64,000 nucleotides of DNA from a virus. The stretch spans positions 8,698 through 72,697 of IMG/VR virus record IMGVR_UViG_3300045999_013278; one strand, given 5' to 3'. This document shows positions 3,054-48,200 of this stretch, piece after piece. Made by a program: the position numbers and the translations under genes. The notes below the pieces were generated by a model that worked only from the letters and a program-made list of their open reading frames with translations, had not been told where the DNA came from and did not search any database. How positions within the stretch are numbered: position 1 is the stretch's first letter; each line of letters starts with the position of its first letter.

Positions 3054-3059
3054 ATAAAT

Positions 3060-3698: not shown

Positions 3699-3712
3699 AA
3701 ATTATTTAAACC

Positions 3713-8166: not shown

Positions 8167-8168
8167 AA

Positions 8169-15214: not shown

Positions 15215-15323
15215 TGCTTTTTTATTTTTTGCCACCAAGTTACGATTTATGAGAAGTTGACTTCTCAAGAATAATTGATTAAGCTAGTATTGTCAATAGC
15301 TATCAAGAAAACAACAAGAGAAT

Positions 15324-22165: not shown

Positions 22166-23638
22166 ATGCTAAAAACGTACACGGCACAGCACAAACCCAA
22201 TCAGTTAATTTACGGAAGTGGACAAACTGCGGTAATTACGGGATGGGCAGTAAAAGAAACCCTACGCAAGCACTTAAAAGATAATGAATACGCTGTAATT
22301 GGACAGCTATACTCACCTACTAGAGGTATCAACTTACTAATTCGTAATTTGTTACTAAATCCTCATGTGCGGTATTTAGTTATTCTCAACGCTACTAAAG
22401 AAGATAAAAACGCGGGTGCTTGTCAATGTTTAGGTGATTTTTTCCGTTATGGTGTAGAAGCAAGTATTAGTGATACCGGGCGAAAATCTTGGGTAATTCG
22501 TTCTTTAATTCCGGGTTATATTGATATTGATATTGATATCAATGCTTTAGAAAAATTACGGCGTTCTGTAGAAATTCAAGACGCAATATCAATTTCTGAT
22601 GCTGTTGAAAAAATCCAATATTATGGAAATAAAGAAATAGTTGCACCCTGGGGAACACCTGTAGAATTTCCCATGACGACAATTGAACCAACAGTTTTTC
22701 CAGGAACACGATATGGACATAGAATAGAAGGTAAAACCATTGCTGAAACCTGGGTAAAAATCATCCACAGAATTAAAACAACAGGGACAATTAGACCAAC
22801 TGGTTATGATGGAAAATGGCAAGAATTGATAGATTTAATGGCAGTTGTCACCGACGAACCTGATGATTTTTATTTTCCCGAACCTAATTATTTACCAATA
22901 GATAGGAGTTTTTTAGAAGAATATATTTCGCAAATATTAGATGATGCAATTAATCAAGAAGGGGTAAAATACACCTATGGACAAAGGTTGCGTTCTTGGT
23001 TTGGAAGAGATCAAATTGAACAGGTAATTGAAAAATTAATTGGAGAAATTGATGCTGCTAGTGCGGTCATGACTTTATGGGATGTTAAAGATCATGAAAA
23101 AGGTGGTAGTCCGTGTTTAAATCATATTTGGTTAAGAGTAGTTGATAATGAATTATCATTAACTGCTGTTTTGAGAAGTAACGATATGTTTGCAGCTTGG
23201 CCAGCTAATGCTATGGGATTGAGGGCTTTACAAAAACATATTAGAAATGAGATTTGTCAACGTTCTCAATATGATTTGAAACTTGCTCCCTTAATAACCT
23301 TGAGTCAGTCTGCTCATATTTATGATGATACTTGGAGTAATGCGGAACAGCTAATTAAAGAACAATATTCTGCAATTTGTAAAAAATTAGATTATTATGA
23401 TCCTGCGGGTAATTTTTTAATAGAAATAGCAGATGATAAGATAGTTGTTACCCATACAACCCCTGGAAGTGGTGAAATTGTCGGTTGCTATTCTGGGAAA
23501 AATCCTTTGAAAATGATTAAAGAAATTTGTGCTGCATCCCCTTCGGTGTGTCCAGATCATGCAGGATATTTAGGTATGGAATTACAAAAAGCCAGTGAGT
23601 GTTTAACAAACGGTATTGAATACATCCAGGATAGGTGA
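22166..23638 (+). CDS. thyA: thymidylate synthase (long form with extra N- and C-terminal domains)
   Basis: YTYGQRLR, PCL catalytic Cys, RSND...PAN, SAHIY; C-terminal DPAGNF...HAGYLGMELQKA (DUF4346-like). Confidence 0.85.
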   Translation: MLKTYTAQHKPNQLIYGSGQTAVITGWAVKETLRKHLKDNEYAVIGQLYSPTRGINLLIRNLLLNPHVRYLVILNATKEDKNAGACQCLGDFFRYGVEASISDTGRKSWVIRSLIPGYIDIDIDINALEKLRRSVEIQDAISISDAVEKIQYYGNKEIVAPWGTPVEFPMTTIEPTVFPGTRYGHRIEGKTIAETWVKIIHRIKTTGTIRPTGYDGKWQELIDLMAVVTDEPDDFYFPEPNYLPIDRSFLEEYISQILDDAINQEGVKYTYGQRLRSWFGRDQIEQVIEKLIGEIDAASAVMTLWDVKDHEKGGSPCLNHIWLRVVDNELSLTAVLRSNDMFAAWPANAMGLRALQKHIRNEICQRSQYDLKLAPLITLSQSAHIYDDTWSNAEQLIKEQYSAICKKLDYYDPAGNFLIEIADDKIVVTHTTPGSGEIVGCYSGKNPLKMIKEICAASPSVCPDHAGYLGMELQKASECLTNGIEYIQDR

Positions 23639-25559: not shown

Positions 25560-28500
25560 TTACCTATCATATAAACCACCTCTATTTAAGCTACCTCCAG
25601 GACGACGCTCTTGCTTGATTGTCTCCTGGATTTTTGCTTCTAAAGCTTTTTCAAACAAGGCTTTGTTAATGTTGCCGTTGCCACCCTCGCTATTATTAAT
25701 GTTCACGTTAGGCGTAATGTTAATCGTATCTCCACTTCTTCCTACGTTATTAATATTCCCTAAACCTTCACCTATCATACCGCCGCTACTGAAACTCTCC
25801 AATTTATTACTACTGTTTAGTTGATTCCATAACTTAGTTTCTTTTGGAGTTAAAACCCGTTCACCTTCGTTAGCGATAATTAAGCGTGGGTTAAACCCAC
25901 TTATCGCCCTTTCCTTGTTTAATAAATCCCCAACCATTCCGCCTTTAGCAAAACTAGGGAGCGTAGCTGAACCAAAGTCTAATCCGCCGTCTAAACCACC
26001 TAAGCTAAAACCATCGCTAAAGTCAAATGCTCCGCTAGAACTAAATGGGATTGCGCTACTGCCTTCGAGTATTCCAAAACTACTCTCTCCAAACGCTCCA
26101 AAAATACTATCTAGCACTCCGCCATCTTTGCTACCTGCGCCCATAATATTTTGCAAGACTAAAGCCGCTTGTTGTAGCATTGTAGCGGACACACTTAGAT
26201 TAGCTCCCGCGTTATTTAAAGCGATCGCGCCCACGTCTTTAGCTTTATTGCCAAAAATAATTTCAGTTAATTTACCAAATAGTTGGTTAGACAGTTCCTT
26301 ACTTGCAACAGCAGCTAAATTGCTTAAAATACTTTTTGCAATCTCGCTAAAAGCATCGACTATACTTCTTTTACTCAACTCCGTCTTTTTCTTTTCTAAG
26401 TCTCTCTGCGCTCTATCTAATTCTTTTAGTTGTTTGTTATTGCCAGAATTTTGGTATGCGTTTCTTACTTCCTGAATATTACCGGACGTATTCATTATAA
26501 TGTCGCGGCGTTTCTTAGCAATCTCATCTAGGGATTTATTAATATCCTGTAAATCGCCAGCGTTTTTATTAACAGAGTCGTTCATGAAAAATCCCTTTAG
26601 GATATTGTCAAAATCTCCTTTAATTCCGCTAATAGCCTCGGTGAACATATTAAATTCTTTCGCAACATTGTCTAGTTTTAACTCGTTTAGCTTAAGTAAA
26701 TTTTCACTAAGTACAGATATTTCTTCTGCTGAATAATTACTTGATAATCCTAGTTTAGCTATTTCGTTTTTTTCCTTCTCAAAATCCATCTTAATTTGTG
26801 ATAAAAGCTGTGCTTTTTGCAATTCCTTGTCTCTAACTCCGAACAAACCCCGACCTCTTATTATCTCGGAAGAAATTGCACTACCGGATGAATTTAATTT
26901 TTCCATCCTGCCGAGTTCAATGCCTCTATTTGTAATCGGCGCGAGCTTAGTTTGGTAAGAATTTTCTGCGTCAAGGTTAGATTTTTCTTTTCCGTAATTA
27001 CGGAAAGCTTTTAGTCGTTCTATTAATTTTTCTTGTGGACTAAGTAAGGCGTTACCTTGAATTTCCAATAATTGTTTCTTGTAAGCATTAGTTAGCTCGT
27101 TAGTTTTTATTGTTAATTCATTGGTTAAGCTGACTAAACTAACCATCCCATCCTTATTGTCAATCGCAAACCGTTCATTGTCTAGTTGCAATGATTTCAT
27201 TTGCGAGGCTTGGATAGTTTGCGATTTAGTTAATTCAATGCCTCTATTTGTAATCGGGGCGAGCTTAGTTTGGTAAGAATTTTCTGCGTCAAGGTTAGAT
27301 TTTTCTTTTCCGTAATTACGGAAAGCTTTTTGTCGTTCTATTAATTTTTCTTGTGGACTAAGTAAGGCGTTACCTTGAATTTCCAATAATTGTTTCTTGT
27401 AAGCATTAGTTAGCTCGTTAGTTTTTATTGTTAATTCATTGGTTAAGCTGACTAAACTAACCATCCCATCCTTATTGTCAATCGCAAACCGTTCATTGTC
27501 TAGTTGCAATGATTTCATTTGCGAGGCTTGGATAGTTTGCGATTTAGTTAATTCGTCGTTAGCTTGCTTAATTCGCTTAACTGTATCGGCATAATTAAAG
27601 TTAAGATCAACGCCCTCTCTTTTAACAGAATTAACATTGAGAATGGCTTTAAATTCCTTCTGAAAAGCTGCTTCACTCATGTTACCGCCCTTACCTCCGC
27701 CATCATAATAACGTCTTTGGAGGTCTAGTAATTGTTGGTATTGGTCACGGGTTAATTCTAGTAAGCTAATATTTCTTTGAAGTGATGGAATTTTTAAAAC
27801 CAACGGATTTAGCGGGTCAATTTCCTCAAGTTTTTGAACTAACTGTAACTGTTGTTGTAGTTGTTCAATAACTTTTGATTGTTGCGATATATCCTGCTCG
27901 CTTAATCTGAAAAACTCTTTTTTGTCAAAATCTTTCATTGACGCTTTGAGGATGCTATCAATATTGGATTTTAAAAATTTCAAGCTATTTTTAGCTTCTG
28001 CATTTTTAAAAGCTGTAGCTTTAAAACTTAGATCGTTTGTCTGGATTGCGGCTGCGGCTAATCTCGGATCATTAGGAAATCTCTTCATTGCCAGATTAAA
28101 TGCGGCTTGTAAGTCCGGTTTTTGCGCGATCGCTCCATCCGTTTCTCTAACAATTTGCTCTAACAACTCAACATCTTTCTCTAATTTGCGGCGTAATTCA
28201 TTAAATTGGAGACTAAACATATCCGCATTACTCATGGTAGGAGATAAACCTTTTAACACCGTTATTCTAGTCCCTAGAGTAGAATCTTTCGTACTGCTGA
28301 TGTCTCCTATCGCGGTTTTTTGAGAGGACATAATAAGCCTGTAAGCCTCTAGCCTTTGTTTTAGCTCATTTTCTCTGATTTGTTCAGGATTTAGGTTGCT
28401 GTTAGTTTGATTAGTTTGATATTGTTGGGCAGCGGTGTTTAATTTAAGTCTACTAGCTTGTGTTACCACTTCCTGCATTTGGTTGGGTTGAATACTTCCG

Positions 28501-31500
28501 CCTTGCATAACAATCTGCACCAATTGTCGCGCTGTATTGCCGTACCGATTTTCTGCTTTGGGGAGGTAATTACCTAGCGTAATATCACCATCCCCTACTC
28601 CTAATGATGCGTTAGGATTCCCCGCAAAAACGGTAGATAAAACTTTTCGGAAGGAGTCTAGCTTTTGCCCTCTACTGTTCTGTTTTAAGTATTTCTGAAC
28701 AAAGACTAATTGCTCTTGTGGACTCATTTGAGACAGAGCATCTATGTTTGTACCCAGTCCTCTAGCCGTAGCGGGCATGAACTGAATTAAACCTGTTGCG
28801 TTTGTGCGTTTGTTCCTAGCAGATGGCGAAAGTGTACCACCTGTTTCATACAGCATCGTTTTAAGTAGGTCTTCAGGGTTTGCTCCTACGCTTTGAGCTA
28901 TTTTAGCCACGCTTTGCAGGAACTTGGTATCTATACGTGGATCTAGCCCTGGAACAAGCGGAACTGATTGGCGTTGTTTTGTTGGCCGTTGTTGAGGCAT
29001 CGGCCAATCTGCTACCCTGTTCAGCCTCTTGTTGTCTTGTGTGGTATCAACAACCTTTTTGGTTGTATCCAATTTAATCCCAGGTACTTTAAAAGTTTTA
29101 CCTAACTGGGTAGTTGGGTTTATCCTTTGACCGTTGATCGTTACCTCCCAATGTAAATGCGATCCTGTGCCACGCCCAGTGCTTCCAACTTTACCTATTA
29201 CATCACCTTGTTGTACAACGTCCCCAACCTTTTTAAGTAATTCAGATAAGTGAAAAAAGCGGTTTACAACTTTTTTACCTTCTGCGGTGATGGTTTCAAC
29301 TTCGACCATATTGCCCGCACCACCATTCCAACCACCTTTAGATGTGATAACCGTGCCTGTCAGTGGTGCTTTAATTGGTGTTCCTGTAGCGTCTTCAAAA
29401 TCAACACCGTTGTGCATTTTTCTAGTGCCGTCCAATGGGTCTGTACGCATTCCGTACTTAGATGTTACGCGCCCCGGCGTAGGTCTAAGCAAAGTTTGAT
29501 TAACAGTCTGTAAATTATCCAATCCGTAGAACTTTTTGACAGCCCCTAACGGATTACTAACGAACTCTTTAGCACCCTGCTCTAACTGTTGCCCAGCTTT
29601 TTCCCCAAACACCGTGCTAACCGCCGATTGAACACCGCCCGCTAAATTTTGTAACAAGCCTTGTCCGGTAGCCAGGGAAGCTAACCAGTTGGAGGTTTTT
29701 ATTCCCATATCAGCGATCGCAGTCCCCACGCGATCAAAGCCGTTCTCAAAAGACTTAACTAAATCTGCAAACTTAGTACCAAGACCTTCTATCCATGAGT
29801 TGCTAGTTTTACTTAAGTCTTTAATACTATCTTCAGCTTTTTTAGTTGCGTCTACAACACTGTTAGATAAGTTATTTATATTCTTATTAATTTCATCAAC
29901 CGTCCTGTTTACGTTTTTAAGACTGAGATTAAAGTTATCGGCAATACTAGAATCTATCGGGATAATTTTTCCTGGTAAACTCCGTTGTAGTTCTATAGCT
30001 TGTAGCTGAATATCTTGGACGTTATTCTGGTAGTCAATCCTCTGTTTTCTTGCTTCTAGTTGTTGTTTCTCTATTTCGGTTGTTTGGGAAATTACATTAA
30101 TAATTCCCTCAATAAACTGAGTGTAGATATTGTCCCCAGCACCAATTAAAGCCTCTCTAAGTTTATTCTGTACTTTAGAGTTTTCAAAGGTCTTTTGTGC
30201 TTTCTCAAATTCAATACCCACAGCTTGAGATTCTCGAACGGCTGCGCGATAATAGTCGGTGACTTGCTTTGTTTGTTGGTAGAGGCTTTGGATTAAGTTA
30301 TATTTCTGCTCTGCAATTTGTTGTTGCATATCAACAGTTTGGATTTGCATTTCCTTAACTTTTATAAAGCCACTTAAAATCTCTTTTTCTTTACTTCCAT
30401 CAATACTTCTTTCTTGTGCAGCCTTTAAGGTGTCTATACCGCTTCTTTTATTTAAATTAAGTGTGCCTAAGACTCTATCTAAATCATTAACTTCCAATTG
30501 AGCGGACATCTCTTGGATTTGTTTTAAATTATCGGCAATTTTACCAGTCAGAGTGGCTTGAGTTTTTAAGTTGTTCGTATATTCCAGTTGCCCTGGTAAA
30601 ACGTCCCCACTGCTGCCAAGGTTAAATAAATTAGTTTTCTCTAAACTTAATGCTGTATCTCTATATTGTCTTAGATCGTTAAACTTAGCTTCTAAGTTCC
30701 TTATTTCAATTGCAAATTTTTGCATTTCTGTTAAGGAATTTTTAATAGCCTTAGTCATCTTGTCTTGTTCTTGAATAACTGTAGCTAAATCTTGTTCAGT
30801 TACCTTAATTATTTTATTAATGTCGTCAATTTCACTTTGGTAAAGTTTGGGATTTTTCTTTAGTTCTTCCCAATACTCCAAATAAGTTTTTAAAGTTTCT
30901 ACTTGTTTGTCTAAATTAGCTTTAGTTCCGCCAAACAATTCTAAGGGCTTTTCTCTCACCCCGCTTATTCTCTTTTCCCATTCTTGCAGAGATCTCAACG
31001 CTTCACTATTGCCGGGATCGTTGGCAATAATCGCCCGACGTTCCATTTTAATATTATCCAAAGATTTGTCTAGGAATTGAATGTCTTGGATAGCGTTTTT
31101 AATAGCGGGAGAGTTACTATCTTTCAAAATATCGAAAGTGTTTTGTTGCCCAATAGTTGTTTGTTTGGCACTATCCTCCATTTGTTTTATTAGTTTTTTT
31201 GTATCGTTATCAAATGGGTTAAGCGTAAATCCTTCTCTAAATGCTGAAAAGTTATCACGGCTAACTTTAGAGGATGGATTTAATAATTTTCTTTGTTCAT
31301 TAATAGACTGAGTAACGTTTCTAGTCTGTTCGCCAATTGCGCCGCTGCTATCCTTGAAATTCATCATTGTTTCATCAATAGCTTTCATCGCCATTGATAA
31401 AACAAACATCTGAGCGGCTAAAGTTGCAATACTTTGACTCATTCCCAGCAATGCACCCTTAGCCCCTCCCGCAGAGAATAAAATTCCTTTTAAATACGTC

Positions 31501-34500
31501 GCAAACATTAACCAAACAGGACTTCCTAATTTAATTAAGGTAATCAGTAAGACACTTTTTAAGAGTTGGAGATTCTTAGTTACTAAATCTATACCAGACG
31601 CAAAAACACTTAAAGAAAAGTTTCTGAAAGGCAGTAAAGTTTTACCAATACTTTCCTGTAACTCAATTAAGGAATTATTGAATTTATTAGTTATCGCCAC
31701 TGAAGAATTAACGGCATCTCCTACACCTGATGAAGTTTGCGCTTTTAATTGTTGAGCAAATTTTGGCAAAAAGTCCTCAGCTAAAACCCTGCCTGTACTT
31801 AATAATTGGTTCATGGACTGGGTGGTTGTTCCGTAAGCATTTGCGGCGATTTGCGAAGCGTTGGGGATTGCTTCAGCGAGTTGTTGTCTTAATTCTTCTT
31901 GAGATACAACCGTTTTTCCAGACATTTGCTCAAGCGCGGTAAAAGTCCTTTGCTGCTTGTCTAAATCTAAACCATAGACAGCCGAAGCTTGAGTGACTGC
32001 GCTAACGATCTGGCGAGATTGATAGCCTTCTATGGGAGTATCCTTAGTTGCCTGGAAGAATTTACTGCCACTTTCTAAAGTTTGGCTTAAGTCAACGTTG
32101 AGTCTTTTTGCTTCCGATCTTAAAAATGCAATATTTTTAGCACCCTCTGAAATGCTTCCAGAAGTGAACTTAATCCGTCTCTCTAAATTCTCAAAGTTAG
32201 CAGCGACTTCTATGCTTGCGGGAGCTAAATCTAAGATAATTTTCCCTACGGCCAACAAAGCTAGGACTTTAACAACATTACCTATAGAAGATTTAACAAA
32301 GTCCATCATCTCGCCAAATTTCTGGACTTTACTCATTCCCTCTACAAAACTATCAAAAGCCACCTTAGCCTGGATGAACCCTTCCTTAATTTTTTCTGGC
32401 ATCTTAAGGAAATCTACAAATAATTCCTTAGCTGCAACAATACCGTTAGCTAACCCCTCGCCTAATGCTGCCGATACGTTAGGATTGGCGATTTCCTTAA
32501 GGAAATCTAAATAACCCTTAAATCTTTCCTTAGCTTCCTTAAATCCTGGGATACTTCCTAATCCTTTACTAAAGCCTCGGCTTAATCTTTCTTTATCTTT
32601 TTCTACGTCAGATGTAATTGTGCCATTTTCTACAGATTCTTTAATTCTGTTTATTTGTCTAATGAGCGATGGAATTATGCCATTGTTACCACCTTCTAAG
32701 AATTGCAGACCCTTAGTGAAACCTTCACCTACGTATTTGCCCAACATTATGCCAAGTCTTACAAATGACTGGGAATTTTTCTTTACGCCATTTTCTATCG
32801 TAGATTGTGGAACTTGGGGAATACCATTTGGTAGGAATGGGGGTAGTTGAGGGTTCACACCTCCGACGGTCGTGTTTGGAATCTTAAAAGATATAGAAGG
32901 TTGTGGAACTTGGGGAATTGGCGGTACGTAAGAATTTGGTAGGATTAGGTGACGTGAAGGATTTTGATTACTATTGGGAAGAATCAATGATTGATAAGAA
33001 GGCTGTGGAATATTTTTAGGAAGAATTGAATTGTATCCTCCTTGCGCCCATCCCATTCTGCCAGATGCAGCTAAAGTAGTTAGTGGGTTTGGCGAACTCC
33101 AGCCCCTTCCTCTTGGAAGAATTAGAGAAAAGTTAGTTACCGCATTTCCTGCACTTAAAAGCACATTTTTAAATGACTCTTGCGCTTCTGTTAACCGTAC
33201 TACATGAGGCTGTTTTTCAGGAGGCAGTATTAGAGGCAGACCGCTTCCGGATCTTTGTCCTGGGAGTATTAAGTTATTGCCATTGTTAGAGTTGTTGTTA
33301 TTAGGGAGAATTAATCCTTGGTAGGGTTTAAGAGGATTTGCCAACGGAATAGAACCGCTATATGGATTTAGCTGACTAGATGATGTAATTATTGGCGAAA
33401 CGTTATTTTGTTTTTTATATTTAGCGTAGCTATCTGGAAGGATTACGGGAGACAGCCCCAAAGACCTATTTATCTCATCCGTAGAAACTACAGAAGATAA
33501 ATTTTTAGAGATTTGTTTAGCAAAAGTTTTCCTTAACTCTTCTGTAGAAATGTTAGGGTTGTATAGTTTAGAGAACTCACCCGTTGGTGCTGAAAATACG
33601 CTAGTCGTTCGGGGAGAATTTAATCTTGTTGAGTCAACGCCAGAAGAAGGTTGGAGTAGTCCATTAATAGGAAGATTTGCTAAACTGCCTTTATTTATGT
33701 GCGGAAGTTTATTATATCCTGACGGTAAAACTAATCCGTTTTCTGCGCCTTTCCTTATCTCATCTACCCTTGAGGTAATTATTTTCTTAGCGTTATTTAA
33801 GGATTCGTCCGCACCCACCCCCATAGCATTGCCTATATTTTGACCAGTTCTAATAGCCCATCTTGAGGGTGATTTAATTTCTAATTTTTCTTCTACTGTA
33901 TCTATTACTGTCTCTGCTAATTTTTCAGAAGATGTACGTAAATCACCTATGCTATTTTCTACACCTTTACTTACGCCCGCTCCTATATTTTCGCCAATTC
34001 TAACTCCTCCATGCAACGCACTTATTCTCGCTGCTTTATTTTGAACAGAAGTTATTTGTGATAAAGAATTGCTTAGTTGTGAACTCTCTCTGCTTTTTGC
34101 AAAATTAGGATCTATTCCTGCACTATTTCTTAATTTTGTTATATCAGCTTTGGCTTTATCTCCATACTGCTTAATCGCCGCAGATAACTCAATAACTGGA
34201 GCGAAGTTACCAGTTGTTTCTGCATCTTTTAACAGGGATCTTAGTTTAGCGAAATTAGCATTAAATTTAGCGGCTAATTCTTGCGCTGATTTTACCGCAA
34301 GCTTGGCTTTTTCTGACACCTCAATATCTTTACCGGATGTAGATTGAGTAACTGGGTTAACTCTAGTTACTTGATATCCGTTGGGGGTTGCGCTTACGGA
34401 TGTAGATTGAGTAACTGGGTTAACTTTAATTACTTGATATCCCTTGGGGATTGTGCTTACTGGAGTTGGAGTATAAGATTTTTCAACAGTATAAGTTGGT

Positions 34501-37500
34501 AAAATGGCCGTTGGTTTAAATTGTGGTAAATCCCCAACAGTTTCTTGCAGTAACGATTTGCCCGAATAACCTATCGGTATTTCTTTAGCAGGATTTAGCG
34601 GTATAAGTAACGAAGGATCTATTTGCCTAGCTTCGGGTATGGGCAGGGCTTTTTTGTACCCTTTCTTTATACTGTTCCTTATTTTGTTAGCATCTAATAT
34701 TCCCCACAATGAAATGTCTATTAAAGCTCTTTGAATAGTTGTCGCCTCATCCTCAGCTTTCTGCTTGGCAGAGGGCATAGTTGTGGACATACCTAAATCA
34801 ATTGCTGATATTTTCCCAGGATCTACTTTGTTTGTTACTGGATCGATTTTATAGTCTTTAAAAAATACATTGGCGGAAGCTAGATCGTTATGAACAACAC
34901 CCATGTCTTGCATAGCCCTACCCAAACTTCCGACATAACGATAGAACTGTGAAAATATTTCATTAAATTGCTTTATATCCTTTCGGATTTGTCTGTCTAA
35001 TAATTTGTTGGCGTTTTCTAAATCCTCTATAGCTTTTTTTATTTCTTTCCTTCTCTCAGGGTTTTTTTCGTTTTCTAATTCATTTTCTAATTTCGCTATC
35101 CTTGGTTTTGTCTCTTTCTTTAACTTTGCTTGTTCTTCTTTCGAGGCTCTTATGGGTGCTGCATAGTCCTCCATAATTTTCTTCAAGTCCCTCCCTTCTA
35201 TTTTTTCTACAATCATAGATTCTTTTTCGTTCGCCGCATAAAGTAACGGGGCGTATCTGCCCTGTAGTCTTTCATAAGCTTTAACTTCCTGTTTTGATGC
35301 TATTTTTTTTGCACCTTCAGGATCTAAATCAGTTTTGTAAACCAATTTATCGGTTATCAAAGCCATAGCTCCAGACCATCCATGACCTACAGCTTTAATT
35401 TCTTTAGCGTCCGGCATCATCGGAGCTATAGTTTTAAGCATTTTATTAAACCCTAAAATTGACGCTGGGTGTTCTCTCATAGCATCCGAAATCGGTAGTT
35501 TTTTTAAGTTTAAATTTTCTTCAAAGTATTCCGATAAATTGCGAAACTCAGGACTTTGCTCAGAAGCATACTTTGGTATTTTTTCTGACCCTGGAATTGT
35601 CGGTAAATACTCAATTTTATCTAAAAAGTCAGGCGATATATTTCCTTTGGTTTTAATAAATTCTTCTTGTAACGACAGAATTACTTTAAATCCTTGAACG
35701 ATTTTTTTTCCGTACTCTTCAAACTGTTTTTGTGATTCAAACCAAGGAATTGTTGCTATAGACAAATCTCGCTTGCGTTCCGCAACTTTGCCAACGTTCA
35801 GTCCGCCAGCCCACCAACCCTTATCAGGGATTGCTTTATTTTCTTTAAAAGTTTGAATAGACTCATTAATGCCACTAACTTCATCCACATACCTCATAAA
35901 TCCGGGATCGGTAACATTATCCGGGAACTTAATCTTTTCCATAACGTCGGTTTTGAGATTTTCGGTAGGCAAATAATCAATCTTGTCTAAAAATTTTGGC
36001 GATATATTGCCGTGAGTTCTAACAAACTCTTCTTGCAGTTTTGCAACAATTTCAAGCCCTTTAATTATTTCTCTTCCGTATTCCTCGAACTGTTTTTGTG
36101 ATTTAAACCAAGGGATAGTTTTTTGTGAAAGTTCTTGGTTTCTTGCAGCAACATCTTCTCTTTTCAAACCACCTGCGAAGTAAGCTCCTGGTACAACCGT
36201 TCTAGTTTTAAAAGATTCAATAGATTGATTGATAATCGATGCCTCTTGTTTATATCTTTGATATCCAGGATGAGATTCATCATTGGGCAAATCTTTCAAT
36301 TGCCCTGTAGGACGTTCTGTTTTTTCTGCATTTGATAGCATTAATGTGCCAGCGTCCACAGCCTGACCTCGAAGTATGGTTGCCATTGATCTCACCTGTT
36401 CCGGCATCCGTTCGTTGGATAATTGTCCAAAAAGGTATTTAGAATCAAATAAGTTTTTTATTACACCTTGACTGTATTGCCCCTTAGAGGCTAAATCCTT
36501 AGCGTGCATCGTAGAAATGACTACTTGGTGAACCTGCAACATGAGTCTTTGCAAGTCAGACATAGTATCTCTTGATGTCTTGTCTGTAGGTAAACTACTA
36601 CCTACAGTGTCATTAAATTTTTCGACAAAACCAGGAGATCGAAATAAGTGATGTGTCGCATGAACGTTTGCCCCTGACGATCTTAGACCTGAATCATCAA
36701 GGATGTTCATTGCACTGCTCGGATTATAAACACCTATTTTAAACGGGAAAGTTAAGGGATCTTTTTCTAAAATTGCAGATGCAAAACCTTTAGGTGTTGC
36801 ATTTGATAAATTTGAAAAAGGATAAGCCATAGCTAGTGCTTTTGTCTTAGTCCCTTCATACTCCGCCGCTTTTGCATACCTGTAAGCACTTGCGCCACCA
36901 AGAGAGAAGCTGATAGCCGAAGCGTCGTTTCCTTGTTCTCTAGCCAGCCTTGTGTGAGCTAAAGCTTGAGCGGCGGCTACGTCCGATCCTAGAGGATTTA
37001 GCGAATAGGCGATCTGTCTTACCGCATTCTTTATAGTTGGAGATAACGATCCCATCCCAGGGAGAAGTTTTTTTATTAATACGTCATCAGTCCACTTATC
37101 TATTTCAGCAGTCCTTTTGCTAACATCTGTGTCCAAATTTTCCACTGGTAACAATTTTATATTCTTCCCAACAATAGGTTCTAAGGAAGTAGCGAGTGCG
37201 CGGCCACCCTGTCCGAACTTATCCTCAGCACCCCCGATTACAGAAACCACCTTTTGTCCAGGCTCTAGTATAGGGAAGGTTGCTTTTCTTGCTTGGTAGT
37301 GAGATTCGGACAGCTTGCTTGTATGATAGGACTGCATCCCCTGTATAAAATTAAGAATTGGTTGAACTTCTTTCATCAAAGGGAGAATAACTTTGTTCGA
37401 CAAGTCAGTGGGTTGAGCTTCTTTTATGATTGTCGGAATAAATCTCCTCTTGTGTTCATCCAACGACAAGCTTGATTTTTTGGAAGAAATTGTTTCAAAC

Positions 37501-38327
37501 TTTTTCTTTAATTCAGGCTCTTCGGACAAAATTCGGTCAACAGCTTCAATAGAGGATGGAGTGTTTTTATTAGATTTATACTCTTCCTCAAGATTTGCGA
37601 TTACTTGTAAATCTCCTAGCCTATTAAGCTGTTTTTGCATTTTAGTTCTTTTTCCGGCAGCAAATTTAGCTTTATCGAAACTACCGCTACTGATTAATTC
37701 TGCAAAAAAAGTTTCATAGACCTGGGACTTTCCTATAATTTCTTCATCAACTAGCCTAAATCCATCTTGAATTTTTTTAGCAAACTGTTTTGTACTTTTC
37801 CCTGTTAATTTAATAGACATCGATCTACCGATTTCTTCAGTAAATCCAACTGCAATATTATCAATACCTTTACCTATGGCATCAGCTACTTTTCCTACAG
37901 CCCTAAACGGCGACATGGCTATATTCGCAGCCATATTCACAGGTGACATAATTACACCCTTTACGACATCTCCTACAGTATTGTTTTTATTTCCACTGCC
38001 GTTATTGTTAACGCTAACATTAGCTGTAACCTTTCTTTGCCCTAATTTATCTAATTCCTTATTTAAGTTAGTTAATTCCCCGTCATCAACAAAAACTTTT
38101 AAAGGATTGTTTTTAAAATAAGTTTGTGTTTGCTTAAAGTGAGTTACCTTTAAGTCAAAATGTTTATTAAGGTTTTTTAGCGAGTCATCATTAACGCCTA
38201 TGGTTAAATTAAGATCTTTCTCTAGAAATTGAGCTTGTTTAATAGCCTCGACCCTAGCCTTTTTTATATCTTCCATTAGCTTGGAGTAATCACCAACTAA
38301 CTCAACAACTAATTGTGGTAATTCCAT
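25560..38327 (-). CDS. giant multidomain tail tape measure protein (alpha/beta-hydrolase-like, kinase-like, tape-measure core, M23 peptidase, lytic transglycosylase)
   Basis: position after tail chaperones; tape-measure core FENLERRIKF...QMSGKTVVSQEELRQQLAEAIP; HNGVD...HLHWEV; YETGG...ATGLIQF; C-terminal FAKGG...NEGERVL. Confidence 0.92.
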   Translation of the reverse strand: MELPQLVVELVGDYSKLMEDIKKARVEAIKQAQFLEKDLNLTIGVNDDSLKNLNKHFDLKVTHFKQTQTYFKNNPLKVFVDDGELTNLNKELDKLGQRKVTANVSVNNNGSGNKNNTVGDVVKGVIMSPVNMAANIAMSPFRAVGKVADAIGKGIDNIAVGFTEEIGRSMSIKLTGKSTKQFAKKIQDGFRLVDEEIIGKSQVYETFFAELISSGSFDKAKFAAGKRTKMQKQLNRLGDLQVIANLEEEYKSNKNTPSSIEAVDRILSEEPELKKKFETISSKKSSLSLDEHKRRFIPTIIKEAQPTDLSNKVILPLMKEVQPILNFIQGMQSYHTSKLSESHYQARKATFPILEPGQKVVSVIGGAEDKFGQGGRALATSLEPIVGKNIKLLPVENLDTDVSKRTAEIDKWTDDVLIKKLLPGMGSLSPTIKNAVRQIAYSLNPLGSDVAAAQALAHTRLAREQGNDASAISFSLGGASAYRYAKAAEYEGTKTKALAMAYPFSNLSNATPKGFASAILEKDPLTFPFKIGVYNPSSAMNILDDSGLRSSGANVHATHHLFRSPGFVEKFNDTVGSSLPTDKTSRDTMSDLQRLMLQVHQVVISTMHAKDLASKGQYSQGVIKNLFDSKYLFGQLSNERMPEQVRSMATILRGQAVDAGTLMLSNAEKTERPTGQLKDLPNDESHPGYQRYKQEASIINQSIESFKTRTVVPGAYFAGGLKREDVAARNQELSQKTIPWFKSQKQFEEYGREIIKGLEIVAKLQEEFVRTHGNISPKFLDKIDYLPTENLKTDVMEKIKFPDNVTDPGFMRYVDEVSGINESIQTFKENKAIPDKGWWAGGLNVGKVAERKRDLSIATIPWFESQKQFEEYGKKIVQGFKVILSLQEEFIKTKGNISPDFLDKIEYLPTIPGSEKIPKYASEQSPEFRNLSEYFEENLNLKKLPISDAMREHPASILGFNKMLKTIAPMMPDAKEIKAVGHGWSGAMALITDKLVYKTDLDPEGAKKIASKQEVKAYERLQGRYAPLLYAANEKESMIVEKIEGRDLKKIMEDYAAPIRASKEEQAKLKKETKPRIAKLENELENEKNPERRKEIKKAIEDLENANKLLDRQIRKDIKQFNEIFSQFYRYVGSLGRAMQDMGVVHNDLASANVFFKDYKIDPVTNKVDPGKISAIDLGMSTTMPSAKQKAEDEATTIQRALIDISLWGILDANKIRNSIKKGYKKALPIPEARQIDPSLLIPLNPAKEIPIGYSGKSLLQETVGDLPQFKPTAILPTYTVEKSYTPTPVSTIPKGYQVIKVNPVTQSTSVSATPNGYQVTRVNPVTQSTSGKDIEVSEKAKLAVKSAQELAAKFNANFAKLRSLLKDAETTGNFAPVIELSAAIKQYGDKAKADITKLRNSAGIDPNFAKSRESSQLSNSLSQITSVQNKAARISALHGGVRIGENIGAGVSKGVENSIGDLRTSSEKLAETVIDTVEEKLEIKSPSRWAIRTGQNIGNAMGVGADESLNNAKKIITSRVDEIRKGAENGLVLPSGYNKLPHINKGSLANLPINGLLQPSSGVDSTRLNSPRTTSVFSAPTGEFSKLYNPNISTEELRKTFAKQISKNLSSVVSTDEINRSLGLSPVILPDSYAKYKKQNNVSPIITSSSQLNPYSGSIPLANPLKPYQGLILPNNNNSNNGNNLILPGQRSGSGLPLILPPEKQPHVVRLTEAQESFKNVLLSAGNAVTNFSLILPRGRGWSSPNPLTTLAASGRMGWAQGGYNSILPKNIPQPSYQSLILPNSNQNPSRHLILPNSYVPPIPQVPQPSISFKIPNTTVGGVNPQLPPFLPNGIPQVPQSTIENGVKKNSQSFVRLGIMLGKYVGEGFTKGLQFLEGGNNGIIPSLIRQINRIKESVENGTITSDVEKDKERLSRGFSKGLGSIPGFKEAKERFKGYLDFLKEIANPNVSAALGEGLANGIVAAKELFVDFLKMPEKIKEGFIQAKVAFDSFVEGMSKVQKFGEMMDFVKSSIGNVVKVLALLAVGKIILDLAPASIEVAANFENLERRIKFTSGSISEGAKNIAFLRSEAKRLNVDLSQTLESGSKFFQATKDTPIEGYQSRQIVSAVTQASAVYGLDLDKQQRTFTALEQMSGKTVVSQEELRQQLAEAIPNASQIAANAYGTTTQSMNQLLSTGRVLAEDFLPKFAQQLKAQTSSGVGDAVNSSVAITNKFNNSLIELQESIGKTLLPFRNFSLSVFASGIDLVTKNLQLLKSVLLITLIKLGSPVWLMFATYLKGILFSAGGAKGALLGMSQSIATLAAQMFVLSMAMKAIDETMMNFKDSSGAIGEQTRNVTQSINEQRKLLNPSSKVSRDNFSAFREGFTLNPFDNDTKKLIKQMEDSAKQTTIGQQNTFDILKDSNSPAIKNAIQDIQFLDKSLDNIKMERRAIIANDPGNSEALRSLQEWEKRISGVREKPLELFGGTKANLDKQVETLKTYLEYWEELKKNPKLYQSEIDDINKIIKVTEQDLATVIQEQDKMTKAIKNSLTEMQKFAIEIRNLEAKFNDLRQYRDTALSLEKTNLFNLGSSGDVLPGQLEYTNNLKTQATLTGKIADNLKQIQEMSAQLEVNDLDRVLGTLNLNKRSGIDTLKAAQERSIDGSKEKEILSGFIKVKEMQIQTVDMQQQIAEQKYNLIQSLYQQTKQVTDYYRAAVRESQAVGIEFEKAQKTFENSKVQNKLREALIGAGDNIYTQFIEGIINVISQTTEIEKQQLEARKQRIDYQNNVQDIQLQAIELQRSLPGKIIPIDSSIADNFNLSLKNVNRTVDEINKNINNLSNSVVDATKKAEDSIKDLSKTSNSWIEGLGTKFADLVKSFENGFDRVGTAIADMGIKTSNWLASLATGQGLLQNLAGGVQSAVSTVFGEKAGQQLEQGAKEFVSNPLGAVKKFYGLDNLQTVNQTLLRPTPGRVTSKYGMRTDPLDGTRKMHNGVDFEDATGTPIKAPLTGTVITSKGGWNGGAGNMVEVETITAEGKKVVNRFFHLSELLKKVGDVVQQGDVIGKVGSTGRGTGSHLHWEVTINGQRINPTTQLGKTFKVPGIKLDTTKKVVDTTQDNKRLNRVADWPMPQQRPTKQRQSVPLVPGLDPRIDTKFLQSVAKIAQSVGANPEDLLKTMLYETGGTLSPSARNKRTNATGLIQFMPATARGLGTNIDALSQMSPQEQLVFVQKYLKQNSRGQKLDSFRKVLSTVFAGNPNASLGVGDGDITLGNYLPKAENRYGNTARQLVQIVMQGGSIQPNQMQEVVTQASRLKLNTAAQQYQTNQTNSNLNPEQIRENELKQRLEAYRLIMSSQKTAIGDISSTKDSTLGTRITVLKGLSPTMSNADMFSLQFNELRRKLEKDVELLEQIVRETDGAIAQKPDLQAAFNLAMKRFPNDPRLAAAAIQTNDLSFKATAFKNAEAKNSLKFLKSNIDSILKASMKDFDKKEFFRLSEQDISQQSKVIEQLQQQLQLVQKLEEIDPLNPLVLKIPSLQRNISLLELTRDQYQQLLDLQRRYYDGGGKGGNMSEAAFQKEFKAILNVNSVKREGVDLNFNYADTVKRIKQANDELTKSQTIQASQMKSLQLDNERFAIDNKDGMVSLVSLTNELTIKTNELTNAYKKQLLEIQGNALLSPQEKLIERQKAFRNYGKEKSNLDAENSYQTKLAPITNRGIELTKSQTIQASQMKSLQLDNERFAIDNKDGMVSLVSLTNELTIKTNELTNAYKKQLLEIQGNALLSPQEKLIERLKAFRNYGKEKSNLDAENSYQTKLAPITNRGIELGRMEKLNSSGSAISSEIIRGRGLFGVRDKELQKAQLLSQIKMDFEKEKNEIAKLGLSSNYSAEEISVLSENLLKLNELKLDNVAKEFNMFTEAISGIKGDFDNILKGFFMNDSVNKNAGDLQDINKSLDEIAKKRRDIIMNTSGNIQEVRNAYQNSGNNKQLKELDRAQRDLEKKKTELSKRSIVDAFSEIAKSILSNLAAVASKELSNQLFGKLTEIIFGNKAKDVGAIALNNAGANLSVSATMLQQAALVLQNIMGAGSKDGGVLDSIFGAFGESSFGILEGSSAIPFSSSGAFDFSDGFSLGGLDGGLDFGSATLPSFAKGGMVGDLLNKERAISGFNPRLIIANEGERVLTPKETKLWNQLNSSNKLESFSSGGMIGEGLGNINNVGRSGDTINITPNVNINNSEGGNGNINKALFEKALEAKIQETIKQERRPGGSLNRGGLYDR
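26916..27554. repeat. 318-bp near-perfect tandem duplication (106 aa) in TMP
   Basis: 26916-27236 vs 27234-27554, about 2 mismatches by eye. Confidence 0.9.
34335..34460. repeat. 63-bp tandem repeat x2 in TMP
   Basis: VS..P.GYQV..VNPVTQSTS twice. Confidence 0.8.
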
Positions 38328-38332
38328 ATAAT

Positions 38333-38766
38333 TTACTCTTCTAATAATAAACTGATTGAGGCTAGAACTTGAGGACTAACTAAACTATTCTCAAAGGCAA
38401 ACTTAATACAAGATTTTGTTTCTTCACTAATGCCCGCCTTGTCGGTTTTAACTTCATTCTTGAACGGTAAAAAATCAGTCCACGAAATATTTTTACCGCC
38501 CAAGAACCCATAAACCACTTCCGCCAACCTTGCTGTTGCAAAGCTTTTTTCGTTAGACTTGACCCTATCAATTTTTTCCAGTCTTGATAGGGTGTCTAAA
38601 ATTACAAAAGGCGGAAGTTGGAGGAAATTTACCCAGCTACTAAATCTACTGTCTTGGATTCCGTGCTTTTGGATCTGGAGGTAGATGGTGTACCAGTCAA
38701 TGTCTTGTCCGCTTCCACTTCCATATCCATCTTCTTCACTTCCTCCAGTGGAGTTAGTGCTTTTTT
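38333..38766 (-). CDS. tail assembly chaperone gpT portion (expressed by -1 frameshift)
   Basis: -1 frame stays open from the A8 slippery run through IDWYTIYLQIQKHGIQDSRFSSWVNFLQLP... to the stop at 38333. Confidence 0.8.
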
Positions 38767-45215: not shown

Positions 45216-48200
45216 ATGTTTAACGAAGTTTATGCTCCGTCCGCAAAACCTGTGTTTTACCGCACTTATTCAAGAAGTAAAAAAGAGACATGGCAAGATG
45301 TTTGTGACCGGACAATTACGGCATTAATTTCTCTGGGAAAATTAACTAAGACTGAGGGTGACTTAATTAGGCGATCGCAGGAAGAATTTAAAGTATTAAG
45401 TAGTGGAAGATGGCTGTGGTGTGGTGGTACAGATTGGTTAAAAAAGCCAGAAAACGTTTACGGTGCTTATAATTGCTCATCCACAAACATTACAGACTGG
45501 GAAGCATTAAGCTTAATGATGAATTTGGCTATGCAGGGATGCGGGACTGGCGCAGTGTTGGAAGATAAATATATTAAAAATCTTCCTATTATAAGGAATA
45601 ATTTAAGCGTAGAGATTGTTAATTTACCTGGCACTGTAAAAAAAGAAAACAGGCACGATGACACTATCGTTAGCGGCGCGCGCGGACAAGTTAACATTTT
45701 TGTTGGAGATAGCCGTAAGGGTTGGGTAGACTCTTACCTTACACTTCTAGAGTTGTCTTCAAGGGAAGATTTAGCGAAAAACGTTAAAGTTTTCGTTTGC
45801 TTAGGTGCGGTAAGAAGTAGTGGGGAAAAACTTAAAGGCTTTGGCGGAAAAGCTAATCCCATAGCTTTAGCTGGGATGTATGGAAAATTAGCTAAGATTT
45901 TAAACGGGGCTATAGGTCGCCAACTTACCGCTTTAGAGTTATGCAAGTTAATTGATGAGGCTAGTGTTACAATTGTAGCCGGAAATATAAGAAGGTCGGC
46001 GGGCATGAGACAGGGTTCGCCAGAAGATATAGAGTTTGCGACCGCTAAAGATAACTTGTGGCAACAAGACAATGAGGGTAACTGGAAAATAGATCCTGAC
46101 AAAGATTGCTTAAGAATGGCTAATCATACGTTAGTTTATCACCGTCGCCCAACTTTAGAAGAGGTCAAAAAAAGTGTGCAAAAACAATTCCACAGCGGTG
46201 AAGGTGCAATTCAATGGGCTGGCGAAGCGGTAGCTAGAGCTAACGTGGATTTACTCTCTAATAAGGATTTAAAAAATAAGTTTTTAGACTTATACAATAA
46301 GTCCTTAAATGAAGCATTAAATTTTTTAGCTAAGTTAGGGCTGTTGAGTATTGCTGAAGCGGAAGAAAGGATGTCTAGGTACGCTACCAACCCTTGTTTT
46401 CGTGGGGATATGAAAATATTAACTAAAGATGGTTACAGAGCATTCGAGTCGTTGGACGGTCAAGATGTAGAGATAATTAACGCAGAGGGCAATGTTTCTC
46501 TATCTCATATATGGTGTTCAGGTGAAAAGGAAACCGTAAGGGTAGGAATGGGGGCTTATGGAAGTATTCACTGCACTCCAGATCACTCTTTTTTAAATAT
46601 TGATGGCAAAAGAGTTGACGCATCTGAATTAAGACCGGGTGACAGATTAATGCCATTCTTAAAAGTGCCAGAGCATAAGAATAAAATATTCGTTTGTTTA
46701 GGATTTGTCCAAGGTGATGGTCAATTATCTGATTTATCTGATTTGAAAGGCGACAAAAAAGGGCAACTAGGTGTTGCTGTCAACATAGGTAAAAAGGATC
46801 AAGAAATCCTAGAATTTTTCCAAGAAACGGAAGGTTTGAAATGCAAGAAACATGGCGAAAGGCGTATTTATGTTAACGGACTGAATGAGTTAATTGACAA
46901 ATACGACTTTTCTCTTTACACCCTTCCATTTCGCGCACTCCCATCCACTTATAAAGGCTGGGACTTAGACATAAAAGCATCGTTCTTGTCTGGACTTTAT
47001 TCAGCTAACGGCAGTGTTCTAAAAAACGGCAGAGTGACCTTAAAGACGACCTGTAGAGAAATGGGCGAACAGGTTGTTGATTCTTTAAAAGCAGACTTTG
47101 GCATAGAAGCTTATATTACCATCAACCGACCGTCAACCGTATCGTTTCCTAACGGTATTTACCAATGTAGAGAAAGTTACGACGTAAATATTCAGCAATA
47201 CAAAGGGAGACTTTCATTCTTCAACCAAATCAACTTTATTCATTCGTACAAGATTGATAAATTTGCCAAAACTCTCTTGGCAACCTCTCCCTCAATATCG
47301 GTAGTAGAAAAACAAGGGATTGTAAAAGTTTATGATTTTTCTGAACCAATAACGCACTGGGGTGTAGTAGAGGGCTTTGTCGCGCATAATTGCGGAGAAA
47401 TTGTGGGTAACAATTTTTTCTGCGATCTCGCTGAAGTACACCTAAACACGCTAGATGGAAAAGACTTAAATAGTTTAAGAGACTCATTTAGGGCTGCGGG
47501 TTTAATTGCAGCCGTACTATTAAATGACAAATTCCCTGACGAGAGATATCAAAAATCTAGGGAGTTAGACCCTATTGTTGGCGTTAGCTTTACTGGCTTA
47601 TTTGACTTTTTCGTTAATTTATTTGGGGAAAGTTGGTTGCGCTGGTGGGAAGGCGGCAGGGAGGAATACTCAGACAGAGACTTTATCACATCAAAGGATT
47701 TAGAAAATTGGATAGAAACATTCCCAGATGAGGTAGTTGAAATTATTAACGATTGGAATAAAAGCCAAGGGAAATTTGCTATAAAACACCCCGGCGTTTG
47801 CAACGGACTACTTTTTAAAGCCTTGGAAGAATTTTACCTGACGCTTTTTAAAGATGAAGCCCATAAAGCAGTTTGGGAATACTGTCATGCACATTCGCTT
47901 AAACGCCCCAATAGATGTACTACGGTGCAACCAAGCGGGACTAAGAGCCTCTTAACTGGCGCGTCTCCTGGCTGGCATCCTCCAAAAGCTGCTAGATTTA
48001 TCCGTCGGATTACTTTTGGCAGAGACGACGCAGTAGCTTTAGCTTGTATGGACTATGGCTACGGTATTATTCCTTCCCAATCTTGTAAAGATGCTGAGGG
48101 TAATTTATTAAACGATCCATTTGACCCAAGAGTTACGGAATGGTTGGTAGAAATTCCCACAAAAACTAGCTGGGCGGATAACATCGGGGAAGATGTAGAT

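Follow-up and report, generated by a model that had tools for sequence, protein, structure and literature searches.

The DNA analysed here, called the window below, is a stretch of 64,000 nucleotides from a viral record in IMG/VR (IMGVR_UViG_3300045999_013278; linear, 72,697 bases, with a completeness estimate of 65%). On its minus strand lies an open reading frame (ORF), 25560..38327, that opens with an ATG and runs for 4255 codons with zero internal stops, and whose product is a genuine tape measure protein (TMP) of an uncultured, siphovirus-type cyanophage. The identification draws on a Pfam match to PF20155 (TMP_3) at amino acids (aa) 2039–2227, which scores 70.4 bits against a curated cut-off of 41; on PHROG TMP families that cover aa 2024–2935 and tail or TMP families that cover aa 1331–1544 (TMP matches of 1e-14 to 1e-29); and on the C-terminal half of the protein, which matches 744 phage records, most of them at annotated TMPs. 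Ahead of its core, this TMP carries a candidate hydrolase and a protein-kinase-like domain in a cassette that is exchanged among otherwise near-identical phages.

An earlier note on this DNA, made from its letters alone, had read the protein as a multi-enzyme polyprotein and placed nine features along it. All nine were found where it had placed them, the enzyme label of the hydrolase domain excepted. The features of the gene are listed here in window coordinates, from the N-terminus to the C-terminus and with the evidence in brackets; CrV stands for Cylindrospermopsis raciborskii virus, whose TMP (CrV-01T gp064, MH636380.1, 4416 aa) serves as a comparison throughout, and dN/dS for the ratio of nonsynonymous to synonymous substitution rates.

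25560..38327, minus strand: whole TMP gene (ORF list, translation, Pfam TMP_3, PHROG TMP families)
38043..38327, minus strand: conserved N-terminal anchor, aa 1–95 (common to all allele types and the CrV-01T TMP)
37338..38027, minus strand: linker region L1, aa 101–330, kept within the family (phmmer map; dN/dS 0.21)
36468..37337, minus strand: hydrolase-like domain, aa 331–620 (invariant columns; SFSLGG nucleophile-elbow-like motif)
35964..36290, minus strand: repeat module copy A, aa 680–788 (tile BLAST against copy B)
35598..35927, minus strand: repeat module copy B, aa 801–910 (tile BLAST; phmmer map)
34458..35540, minus strand: protein-kinase-like domain, aa 930–1290, with a coiled-coil insert at aa ~1060–1120 (invariant columns; hhalign)
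34334..34460, minus strand: 63-nt tandem repeat, two copies (21 aa x 2), just past the kinase domain (Tandem Repeats Finder, 92% matches)
33753..34349, minus strand: TMP-type (SPSR) segment, aa 1327–1525, with an 'IKSPSR' motif common to the CrV TMP (PHROG, aa 1331–1544; BLASTP)
32823..33752, minus strand: Pro/Ser/Asn-rich array with ILP motifs, aa ~1526–1835 (motif list, composition)
31377..32300, minus strand: TMP core PF20155 (aa 2039–2227) and flanking hydrophobic segments (Pfam; Kyte-Doolittle scan)
29115..29420, minus strand: Peptidase M23 domain, aa 2970–3071 (Pfam 2.6e-25; PDB 2hsi 1.1e-21)
28548..28931, minus strand: lytic transglycosylase-like domain, aa ~3133–3260 (PDB sequence matches; PHROG 21656 and 196)
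26916..27554, minus strand: 318-nt tandem duplication (106 aa x 2), 2.0 copies (Tandem Repeats Finder, 99% matches)
25560..26000, minus strand: conserved C-terminal region, aa ~4110–4255 (BLASTP, phmmer map; common to the CrV TMP and other giant TMPs)

A conserved tape measure frame with an inserted enzyme module

The protein is built on a conserved TMP frame, which consists of the anchor, the SPSR segment, the TMP_3 core with its hydrophobic flanks, the part that bears the M23 and transglycosylase domains, and the C-terminus. Inserted into this frame, after the anchor and before the SPSR segment, is a cassette of ~1350 aa, made up of the hydrolase-like domain, a 105-aa module that is present once or twice, and the kinase-like domain. 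The two module copies in the window TMP, which the earlier note had described as diverged repeats of about 105 aa, are 51% identical (E 8e-35), and relatives hold one copy or two. The same note had counted about 2000 aa of cargo ahead of the core. That figure is overstated. Only aa ~95–1450 vary between lineages as cargo; aa ~1327–2038 are of TMP type and are found too in the CrV-01T TMP, in which the core likewise lies ~1975 aa from the start.

The core had been placed from about aa 2045 on, in agreement with the Pfam match. Hydrophobic segments occur only at aa 2010–2039, 2255–2277 and 2299–2317, on both sides of the core (Kyte-Doolittle). The enzyme module lies N-terminal to these segments and the wall-degrading domains lie C-terminal to them, a topology that fits a cytoplasm-directed N-terminal part as far as the sequence goes.

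Both wall-degrading domains that had been suspected from the letters find support in the database searches. Peptidase_M23 scores 88.9 bits against a curated cut-off of 28.7, and the translation contains HNGVD and HLH, which we take to be the metal-binding motifs of this family. The transglycosylase-like domain matches a "lytic transglycosidase" (PDB 9udh, 2.9e-17) and a phage internal protein (9k2v_E, 3e-21) in addition to its PHROG families, and the Pfam SLT match at aa 3166–3216 stays under its cut-off (15.6 against 21.3 bits). Further toward the C-terminus, the duplication of 106 aa is recent, as had been proposed: its copies, aa 3592–3697 and 3698–3803, differ at a single residue.

The Pro/Ser/Asn-rich array (aa ~1530–1835) was also recognised correctly. 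It contains nine ILP motifs (aa 1629–1795) together with a VLP at 1533 and an FLP at 1831, and its length differs between alleles. Motifs of the ILP type reach a density of 1.34 per 100 aa here, against 0–0.56 in 22 relatives. We considered the array as a set of conserved processing sites and rejected this, as the enrichment is confined to this lineage.

The N-terminal cassette is exchanged between near-identical phages

Alleles of the TMP gene were typed in 18 viral contigs that encode the upstream 308-aa protein at 93–100% identity, and they fall into the following types:

Type A, 7 of 18 loci: as in the window, with hydrolase-like and kinase-like domains
Type B, 5 of 18 loci: ~640 aa instead of aa ~93–1443, with a divergent hydrolase-like domain only
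Type C, 4 of 18 loci: CrV-like N-terminal part, with no hydrolase-like or kinase-like domain
Type D, 1 of 18 loci: divergent, 3040 aa
Untyped, 1 of 18 loci: contig too short

Type B DNA is 99.5% identical to the window up to codon 93, unrelated to it up to about codon 1443, and 95.5% identical from codon 1863 on; the complete type B ORF has 3210 aa, with no repeat module and no kinase. Type C DNA is 99.5–99.7% identical up to codon 95, unrelated up to codon 2678 and 99% identical thereafter, and the N-terminal two-thirds of its product resemble the CrV TMP. The left breakpoint is sharp and falls at aa 93–95 (window 38045–38051), and the right boundary of type B lies at about 33967–34000 (blastn). 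The segment that replaces the module in type B holds a very divergent hydrolase-like domain in which GTSGG, DPL and a His follow in the same order; it matches the family hidden Markov model (HMM) at E 9e-4 (four targets, two collinear stretches), Pfam Abhydrolase_3 at 0.19 and a PDB cutinase at 0.35.

The enzyme module (aa ~95–1450) is therefore an optional, exchangeable insert bounded by a conserved anchor. A search for variable N-terminal cargo in related phages was among the checks suggested in the earlier note, and such cargo was found, with three or four versions of aa ~95–1450 among near-identical phages.

RNA libraries also contain this gene. A 13,114-nt contig from run X15, a metatranscriptome library, matches the C-terminal half and the first ~92 codons of the TMP gene; in it, 2295 different letters stand in place of window 33967–38051 (4083 nt), and the 318-nt unit is single. 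This is a type-B-like allele, with a word depth of 86, and small contigs from X17, which belongs to a second RNA study, fall on 32343–38361. Such contigs are no more than a hint of expression, because DNA carry-over is possible in libraries of this kind.

A second polymorphic site of the TMP gene is located at window ~28977–29540 (aa ~2940–3118), and it sets L005, L008, L142 and L144 apart from L009, L134, L147 and L149. Some alleles swap M23 for a 31%-identical version within a 203-aa segment, and others keep M23 and have ~209 additional aa between it and the transglycosylase; the window TMP has M23 without the extra segment. A PDB search with that ~209-aa segment gave no match. The unitigs of other runs break at this site, at 28979–28988.

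The reading frame recurs across samples

Seven IMG/VR contigs from different samples carry aa 100–1299 at 99–100% identity within one long frame, and the ORFs of sister contigs measure 4098, 4280 and 4520 aa. Of the words sampled from 31000–38400, at least 97% are present in each of fourteen lake or freshwater DNA runs. In two runs that were not marked as possible sources, unitigs cover 30 of 30 gene bins, and one unitig of 4112 nt equals 33969–38080 with one mismatch; unitig ends or loose ends, at 30296, 33794 and 38053, coincide with places of allele divergence. Several alleles co-occur in single samples. The earlier note had raised the prospect that the ORF is an assembly chimera, and this is contradicted by the seven contigs, by the unitigs of other runs, and by ~20 distant TMPs that show the same order of domains.

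The kinase-like domain resembles small atypical kinases

A kinase-like domain had been seen at about aa 970–1200, and the comparison with relatives confirms it. The invariant positions in an alignment of 23 sequences with 19–53% identity to the window TMP (A3) include Gly983, Gly986, Glu1014, His1146, Asp1148, Asn1153 and Asp1177; conservation of Lys998 reaches at least 90%. We take these positions to be the glycine loop, the strand-3 Lys, the helix-C Glu, the HxD...N catalytic loop and the DxG metal-binding Asp. The motifs stand in the linear order expected of the protein-kinase-like superfamily. When the A3 profile was compared by hhalign with 18 Hanks-type kinases from one Calothrix genome, the match had a probability of 97.5% (E 6.3e-12) and spanned 110 columns, starting at helix C and ending with the DxG motif; four negative controls gave 0.1–0.4%.

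Matches of the single sequence to Pfam are all sub-threshold, with E-values of 0.0098 for Kdo (15.8 bits, cut-off 21.3), 0.015 for APH (15.5 bits, cut-off 23.2) and 0.036 for Pkinase (13.9 bits, cut-off 31.7), and NCBIfam Bud32 matches at E 9.2e-6 (25.3 bits, cut-off 125). When seven family members were scanned singly, RIO1 was matched by three (best 4.1e-5), APH and Pkinase by three each, and Kdo and ABC1 by two each. Two fragments of a relative are labelled "Bud32" by IMG, and the Kdo family was not found among the 41 genomes scanned. We therefore predict, with good support from these comparisons, that aa 930–1290 form a protein-kinase-like domain that resembles small atypical kinases and lies outside every curated family.

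The hydrolase-like domain is a candidate Ser-Asp-His enzyme

The alpha/beta-hydrolase-like domain of the earlier note stands as a conserved domain at aa ~331–620, but its fold label draws weak matches only. In an alignment of 25 sequences with 19–58% identity (A2), Ser475 (within SFSLGG), Asp523 and His556 are invariant, as are Gly366, Gly372, Gly374, Asn397 and Asp401. A nucleophile-elbow-like motif and the Ser-Asp-His order are present, with spacings of 48 and 33 residues that are similar to those of the CrV class-3 lipase, in which the triad was assigned by eye. The A2 profile reached hhalign probabilities of 18.5% with DLH (the dienelactone-hydrolase set), 5.1% with Abhydrolase_2, 26.1% with Lipase_3 (90 columns) and 27.8% with the CrV class-3 lipase gp068, and in these three families and the CrV lipase it is the Ser elbow that is aligned; negative controls gave 0.1–0.4%, and true alpha/beta-hydrolase families give 59–98% with one another. 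This signal is specific and suggestive, but far from proof. A PDB profile search with the domain returned no significant match. A joint alignment of the type A and type B hydrolase-like domains was set aside, as it put the nucleophile one column off. We regard aa 331–620 as a candidate Ser-Asp-His hydrolase, possibly lipase-like.

The domain order is kept in distant giant tape measure proteins

A megablast of the TMP gene against the phage collection gave zero matches, and a search of 50,697 phage records with aa 1–2040 found nothing beyond the first 99 residues, which match the CrV-01T TMP. A PDB sequence search with aa 1–2040 found nothing significant, and PDB profile searches with alignments A1, A4 and A5 returned coiled-coil noise, sub-threshold kinases and nothing hydrolase-like. 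An exhaustive phmmer search with aa 100–1299 against 1.84 billion representatives found 30 proteins at E <= 0.001, of which 25 are at least 1900 aa long; the databases name these relatives "tape measure domain-containing protein". The domain map shows 20 relatives with hydrolase-like and kinase-like domains in the same order and four long ones with the hydrolase-like domain only. The kinase-only matches are three fragments of 377–476 aa, and no full-length kinase-only protein was seen (0 among 20 long kinase carriers). The TMP core is present in 23 of the 30 relatives, and a Pfam scan of five of them found TMP_3 in all five, with M23 and a tail lysozyme added in one.

Roughly 20 distant giant TMPs (3000–5800 aa) share the order hydrolase-like domain, repeat module, kinase at 25–62% identity. 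The enzyme module is, then, not just a peculiarity of this phage, and the cassette is old, as the same domain order is found in these distant proteins. The parts that differ among the relatives are the wall-acting C-terminal domains. In relative P0006 (4425 aa), for example, a class-A beta-lactamase-fold domain (Beta-lactamase2, 4.5e-25; aa 3569–3765), downstream of the core, takes the place of M23 and transglycosylase, and it may be a penicillin-binding-type peptidase that acts on the wall. Neither the type A nor the type B version of the hydrolase-like domain gave stand-alone homologues when searched for, only fragments of the same TMPs. In metagenome contigs A3 detected four loci only, and in genome contigs A1 detected one 1368-nt contig of an alphaproteobacterial metagenome-assembled genome (MAG), probably mis-binned.

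Selection was estimated against L016 and L017 (62% identical), and the resulting ratios are approximate, with dS above 1 and saturated. The dN/dS is 0.11 for the kinase domain, 0.17 for the hydrolase-like domain, 0.21 for L1 and the repeats, 0.24–0.31 for the N-terminal anchor and 0.5 for the SPSR segment. These values indicate that the cassette is under purifying selection. The N-proximal domains look like working enzymes, not decayed spacers, because their catalytic-type residues are invariant at 19–58% identity and dN/dS is lowest in these two domains.

Genomic setting and probable host

Upstream of the TMP gene, the same strand holds a gene for a protease-capsid fusion, together with six small genes that match no family. 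The fusion (42709–45120, minus strand; 803 aa) joins a prohead protease, Peptidase_S78 (aa 97–208), to a major capsid protein, and its best phage matches are the Cylindrospermopsis phages Cr-LKS4 and CrV, at 31.7% identity. Lambda-like tail-tip genes (L/K-, I- and J-like) are found at window 5932–9574 (minus strand), and the ~16 kb between them and the TMP gene are taken up by genes of replication and nucleotide metabolism, on both strands. The CrV TMP gene is likewise apart from other recognisable tail genes. The tail tube protein and tail chaperones were not recognised, and no transfer RNA genes were found in the window.

The window also encodes a large terminase, a ribonucleotide reductase, a helicase and a primase/polymerase-like gene. 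The ribonucleotide reductase (45216–48599, plus strand; 1127 aa) has a PHROG match that is split in two stretches, and it may contain an insertion such as an intein. In a 490-aa protein (22166–23638, plus strand), a thymidylate-synthase-like part is joined to a pterin-binding DUF4346 domain at the C-terminus; its gene adjoins those of a dCMP deaminase and a RecJ-like exonuclease, and this setting suggests a module for nucleotide modification or salvage.

A transposase gene of the TnpB/IS605-OrfB type (13955–15268, minus strand) shares 96% identity with its counterpart in a Nostocales MAG and is 86–89% identical to genes of Cronbergia, Anabaena and Dolichospermum, and 77–89% identical to genes across many filamentous cyanobacteria. 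It is a likely link to the host and a likely sign of insertion-sequence traffic between host and phage. CrV also has an IS605 OrfB gene close to its TMP gene. Among the sequences filed under Dolichospermum MAGs are fragments of the closest relatives of the TMP. We consider a Nostocales cyanobacterium such as Dolichospermum to be the likely, not proven, host because of the TnpB identity, these TMP fragments, and the similarity of the capsid protein to those of Cylindrospermopsis phages.

Proposed function of the cassette

TMPs are ejected at infection and commonly carry wall-degrading domains. We propose that the cassette supplies accessory early effectors that are delivered into the host cell, a reading to which we assign a probability of about one half. 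As in other siphoviruses, the TMP would fill the tail tube and, at infection, leave it with the C-terminus in front. Its M23 and transglycosylase domains would breach the peptidoglycan, the hydrophobic segments that flank the core would insert in the cytoplasmic membrane, and the N-terminal part, which would leave last and just ahead of the DNA, would reach the cytoplasm. There, the hydrolase-like and kinase-like domains would act in host takeover or counter-defence before phage gene expression; the hydrolase-like domain could alternatively have lipids or esters of the envelope as its substrates, or cleave the polyprotein. A kinase-like domain would be sensible only in a cytoplasm, whether of the new host or of the cell that produces the phage, because a kinase needs adenosine triphosphate (ATP) and the periplasm has none. 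We favor an effector role over a role in assembly or as filler because the module is optional on identical backgrounds, its catalytic-type residues are constrained, and its domain order is kept.

Several points weigh against this proposal. Type B, without the kinase, and type C, without either domain, show that neither tail assembly nor infection requires the module. The orientation of the TMP, with its N-terminus head-proximal and its C-terminus at the tip, is an assumption carried over from other siphoviruses, and folded domains of 30–40 kDa would be expected to fit only tightly in the lumen of a tail tube. The presence of the module in the virion, its survival of processing, its ejection and its crossing of the membrane are plausible, and are put forward as a proposal only. 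The domain assignments have their own weaknesses. For the hydrolase-like domain, the Pfam match to Abhydrolase_6 is weak (E 0.15–0.2), and the hhalign alignments barely reach past the nucleophile elbow, with probabilities of 5–28% against 59–98% for true families. For the kinase-like domain, the curated cut-offs for membership in Bud32, RIO, Kdo or APH are not reached, and PDB sequence and profile searches, in which the coiled-coil insert draws noise, gave no significant kinase match (best 0.084). Homology searches found no stand-alone cellular homologue of either domain. Lastly, haplotypes that co-occur could have been mixed in the exact 4255-aa combination of this contig, because the alleles share identical segments and are found together in samples.

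A fuller version of the effector proposal, which we hold tentatively and consider doubtful in its whole extent, sees the TMP as a modular translocation platform. With its N-terminal anchor and a channel-forming C-terminal half, it would bring exchangeable enzyme cassettes into the cytoplasm of the cyanobacterium shortly before the DNA enters. The kinase, fed by host ATP, would phosphorylate host defence or regulatory proteins ahead of all phage gene expression, or would serve as an ATP-driven ratchet that helps to pull the several-hundred-nanometre TMP and the genome from the tail, and the variation of the cassette among co-occurring, otherwise identical phages would record a continuing arms race with Nostocales hosts in lakes.

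It is also conceivable, although we think it unlikely, that the module works in the producing cell, with a kinase-like ATPase or kinase that aids the folding or chaperoning of the TMP and tail or serves as an assembly check, and a Ser-Asp-His domain that is a self-processing peptidase; the module would then be removed, or be inert in the virion. ATP is at hand in the producing cell, RIO- and Bud32-type proteins, which are the closest families, are largely ATPases in assembly, TMP processing is known in other phages, and the kinase is paired with the hydrolase-like domain in 20 of 20 long proteins. However, sister phages with 99.5% identical flanks build tails without the kinase or without both domains, even with TMPs of 3040–3232 aa, and assembly therefore does not need the module. 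The module is also in frame between the conserved anchor and the rest of the protein, which would make clean removal harder, and no cleavage site or processing-peptidase family was identified in the TMP.

An action of the hydrolase-like domain in the cell envelope is rather improbable. Here the domain would attack outer-membrane lipid, lipopolysaccharide or polysaccharide esters as a penetration tool beside M23 and transglycosylase, and the kinase would play a secondary or regulatory part. Hydrolases with a Ser-Asp-His triad work without a cofactor, the strongest of the profile matches, weak as they are, point to class-3 lipases (26% for the family, 28% for CrV gp068), CrV has a separate putative class-3 lipase near its TMP gene, and the hydrolase-like domain is kept without the kinase in type B and in four long relatives. 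The domain is, however, N-terminal to the hydrophobic segments and far from the wall-degrading domains, so that it would leave the tail last; its fold and substrate are only putative, and a kinase with intact motifs is left unexplained.

That the domains are inert, exapted filler that contributes only ruler length or bulk is very improbable. TMP length is thought to set tail length, and TMPs in this lineage are very long even without enzymes, as in CrV with its 4416 aa. On the other hand, the catalytic-type residues are invariant down to 19% identity, the lowest dN/dS falls exactly in these domains, and the filler regions of the protein, namely the Pro/Ser/Asn array and the coiled coils, are free to change in both length and sequence. 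Least credible of all is an ORF that joins a TMP to unrelated genes by misassembly: the contig comes from a metagenome, is estimated to be 65% complete and belongs to a group in which co-occurring alleles with identical segments invite mis-joins, yet the frame is continuous from anchor through kinase to core in seven contigs of different samples, recurs in the unitigs of two other runs, and has the same order at 25–62% identity in distant relatives.

Comparison with known systems

CrV-01T gp064 is likewise a giant TMP of a siphovirus that infects a Nostocales cyanobacterium, and its collinear islands with the window TMP are the anchor, the SPSR segment, a core ~2000 aa in, a coiled-coil stretch and the C-terminus. 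The anchor is 41% identical to aa 1–101 of gp064, and aa ~100–1330 are not in common (BLASTP). In contrast to the window TMP, gp064 is without the L1, hydrolase-like, repeat and kinase modules (phmmer found none at 1e-3; family HMMs gave E 0.03–4), and it has no match to the M23 or transglycosylase domains. It is like the type C alleles of the present phage group in its enzyme-free form.

Pb2 of T5 and the TMP of mycobacteriophage TM4 have embedded cell-wall hydrolase domains, and they resemble the window TMP in having enzymatic domains inside an ejected TMP, here M23 and a lytic transglycosylase. Their domains differ from the kinase-like and Ser-Asp-His module N-terminal to the core in that they act on peptidoglycan. 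A module of the latter kind was found in 0 of 50,697 phage records, and a literature search for TMPs with kinase, Bud32, RIO, lipase, esterase or effector domains, with subscription papers largely outside its coverage, turned up none describing such a TMP. Wall-degrading domains in TMPs are already known, and polyvalent proteins packaged in the head are believed to bring enzymes in along with the DNA; what appears to be new is the occurrence of kinase-like and hydrolase-like domains as a swappable TMP cassette.

Polyvalent proteins are described as large multidomain proteins that are proposed to be delivered together with the DNA and that carry catalytic domains, a distinct group of protein kinases among them, for use in phage-host conflict (Iyer et al. 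2017, PMC5512222). Those kinases are described there as being without the C-terminal subdomain, and as found mainly in prophages of the Verrucomicrobia-Chlamydia group and Bacteroidetes. The window TMP is alike in being a multidomain enzyme carrier with a kinase and a proposed delivery with DNA; it differs in its carrier, and the term "tape measure" does not occur in PMC5512222. Pfam finds no MuF or processing-peptidase family, which would mark a polyvalent protein, in the window TMP. We do not class it as one, although it may work like one, the carrier being a TMP.

TMP-related effectors of the Sle1 type are described as modular proteins that are loaded in contractile particles of Actinobacteria and that have an exchangeable functional domain (Nagakubo et al. 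2026, PMC13277306). The likeness lies in a modular, TMP-related protein within a tail-like particle whose functional domain differs between relatives. These effectors are set apart by belonging to intracellular contractile particles and not to an infecting siphovirus, and by functional domains that are apparently unrelated. By analogy only, MARTX toxins also combine conserved ends that form a translocation device with variable central effectors, alpha/beta-hydrolases included; they differ as secreted bacterial toxins that act on eukaryotic cells and have an autoprocessing cysteine protease, and we claim no sequence kinship with them.

Implications

If the effector reading is correct, a kinase-bearing TMP would extend virion-borne effector delivery to the lumen of the siphovirus tail, and part of a TMP would enter the cytoplasm, which is so far poorly documented. 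The three or four alleles on 99.5% identical backgrounds provide a natural comparison in which host range, infection kinetics and tail length are measurable. The phage group recurs in at least 14 lake-metagenome runs and is bloom-associated, and its probable link to bloom-forming Nostocales such as Dolichospermum would give the exchange of these cassettes a bearing on bloom dynamics.

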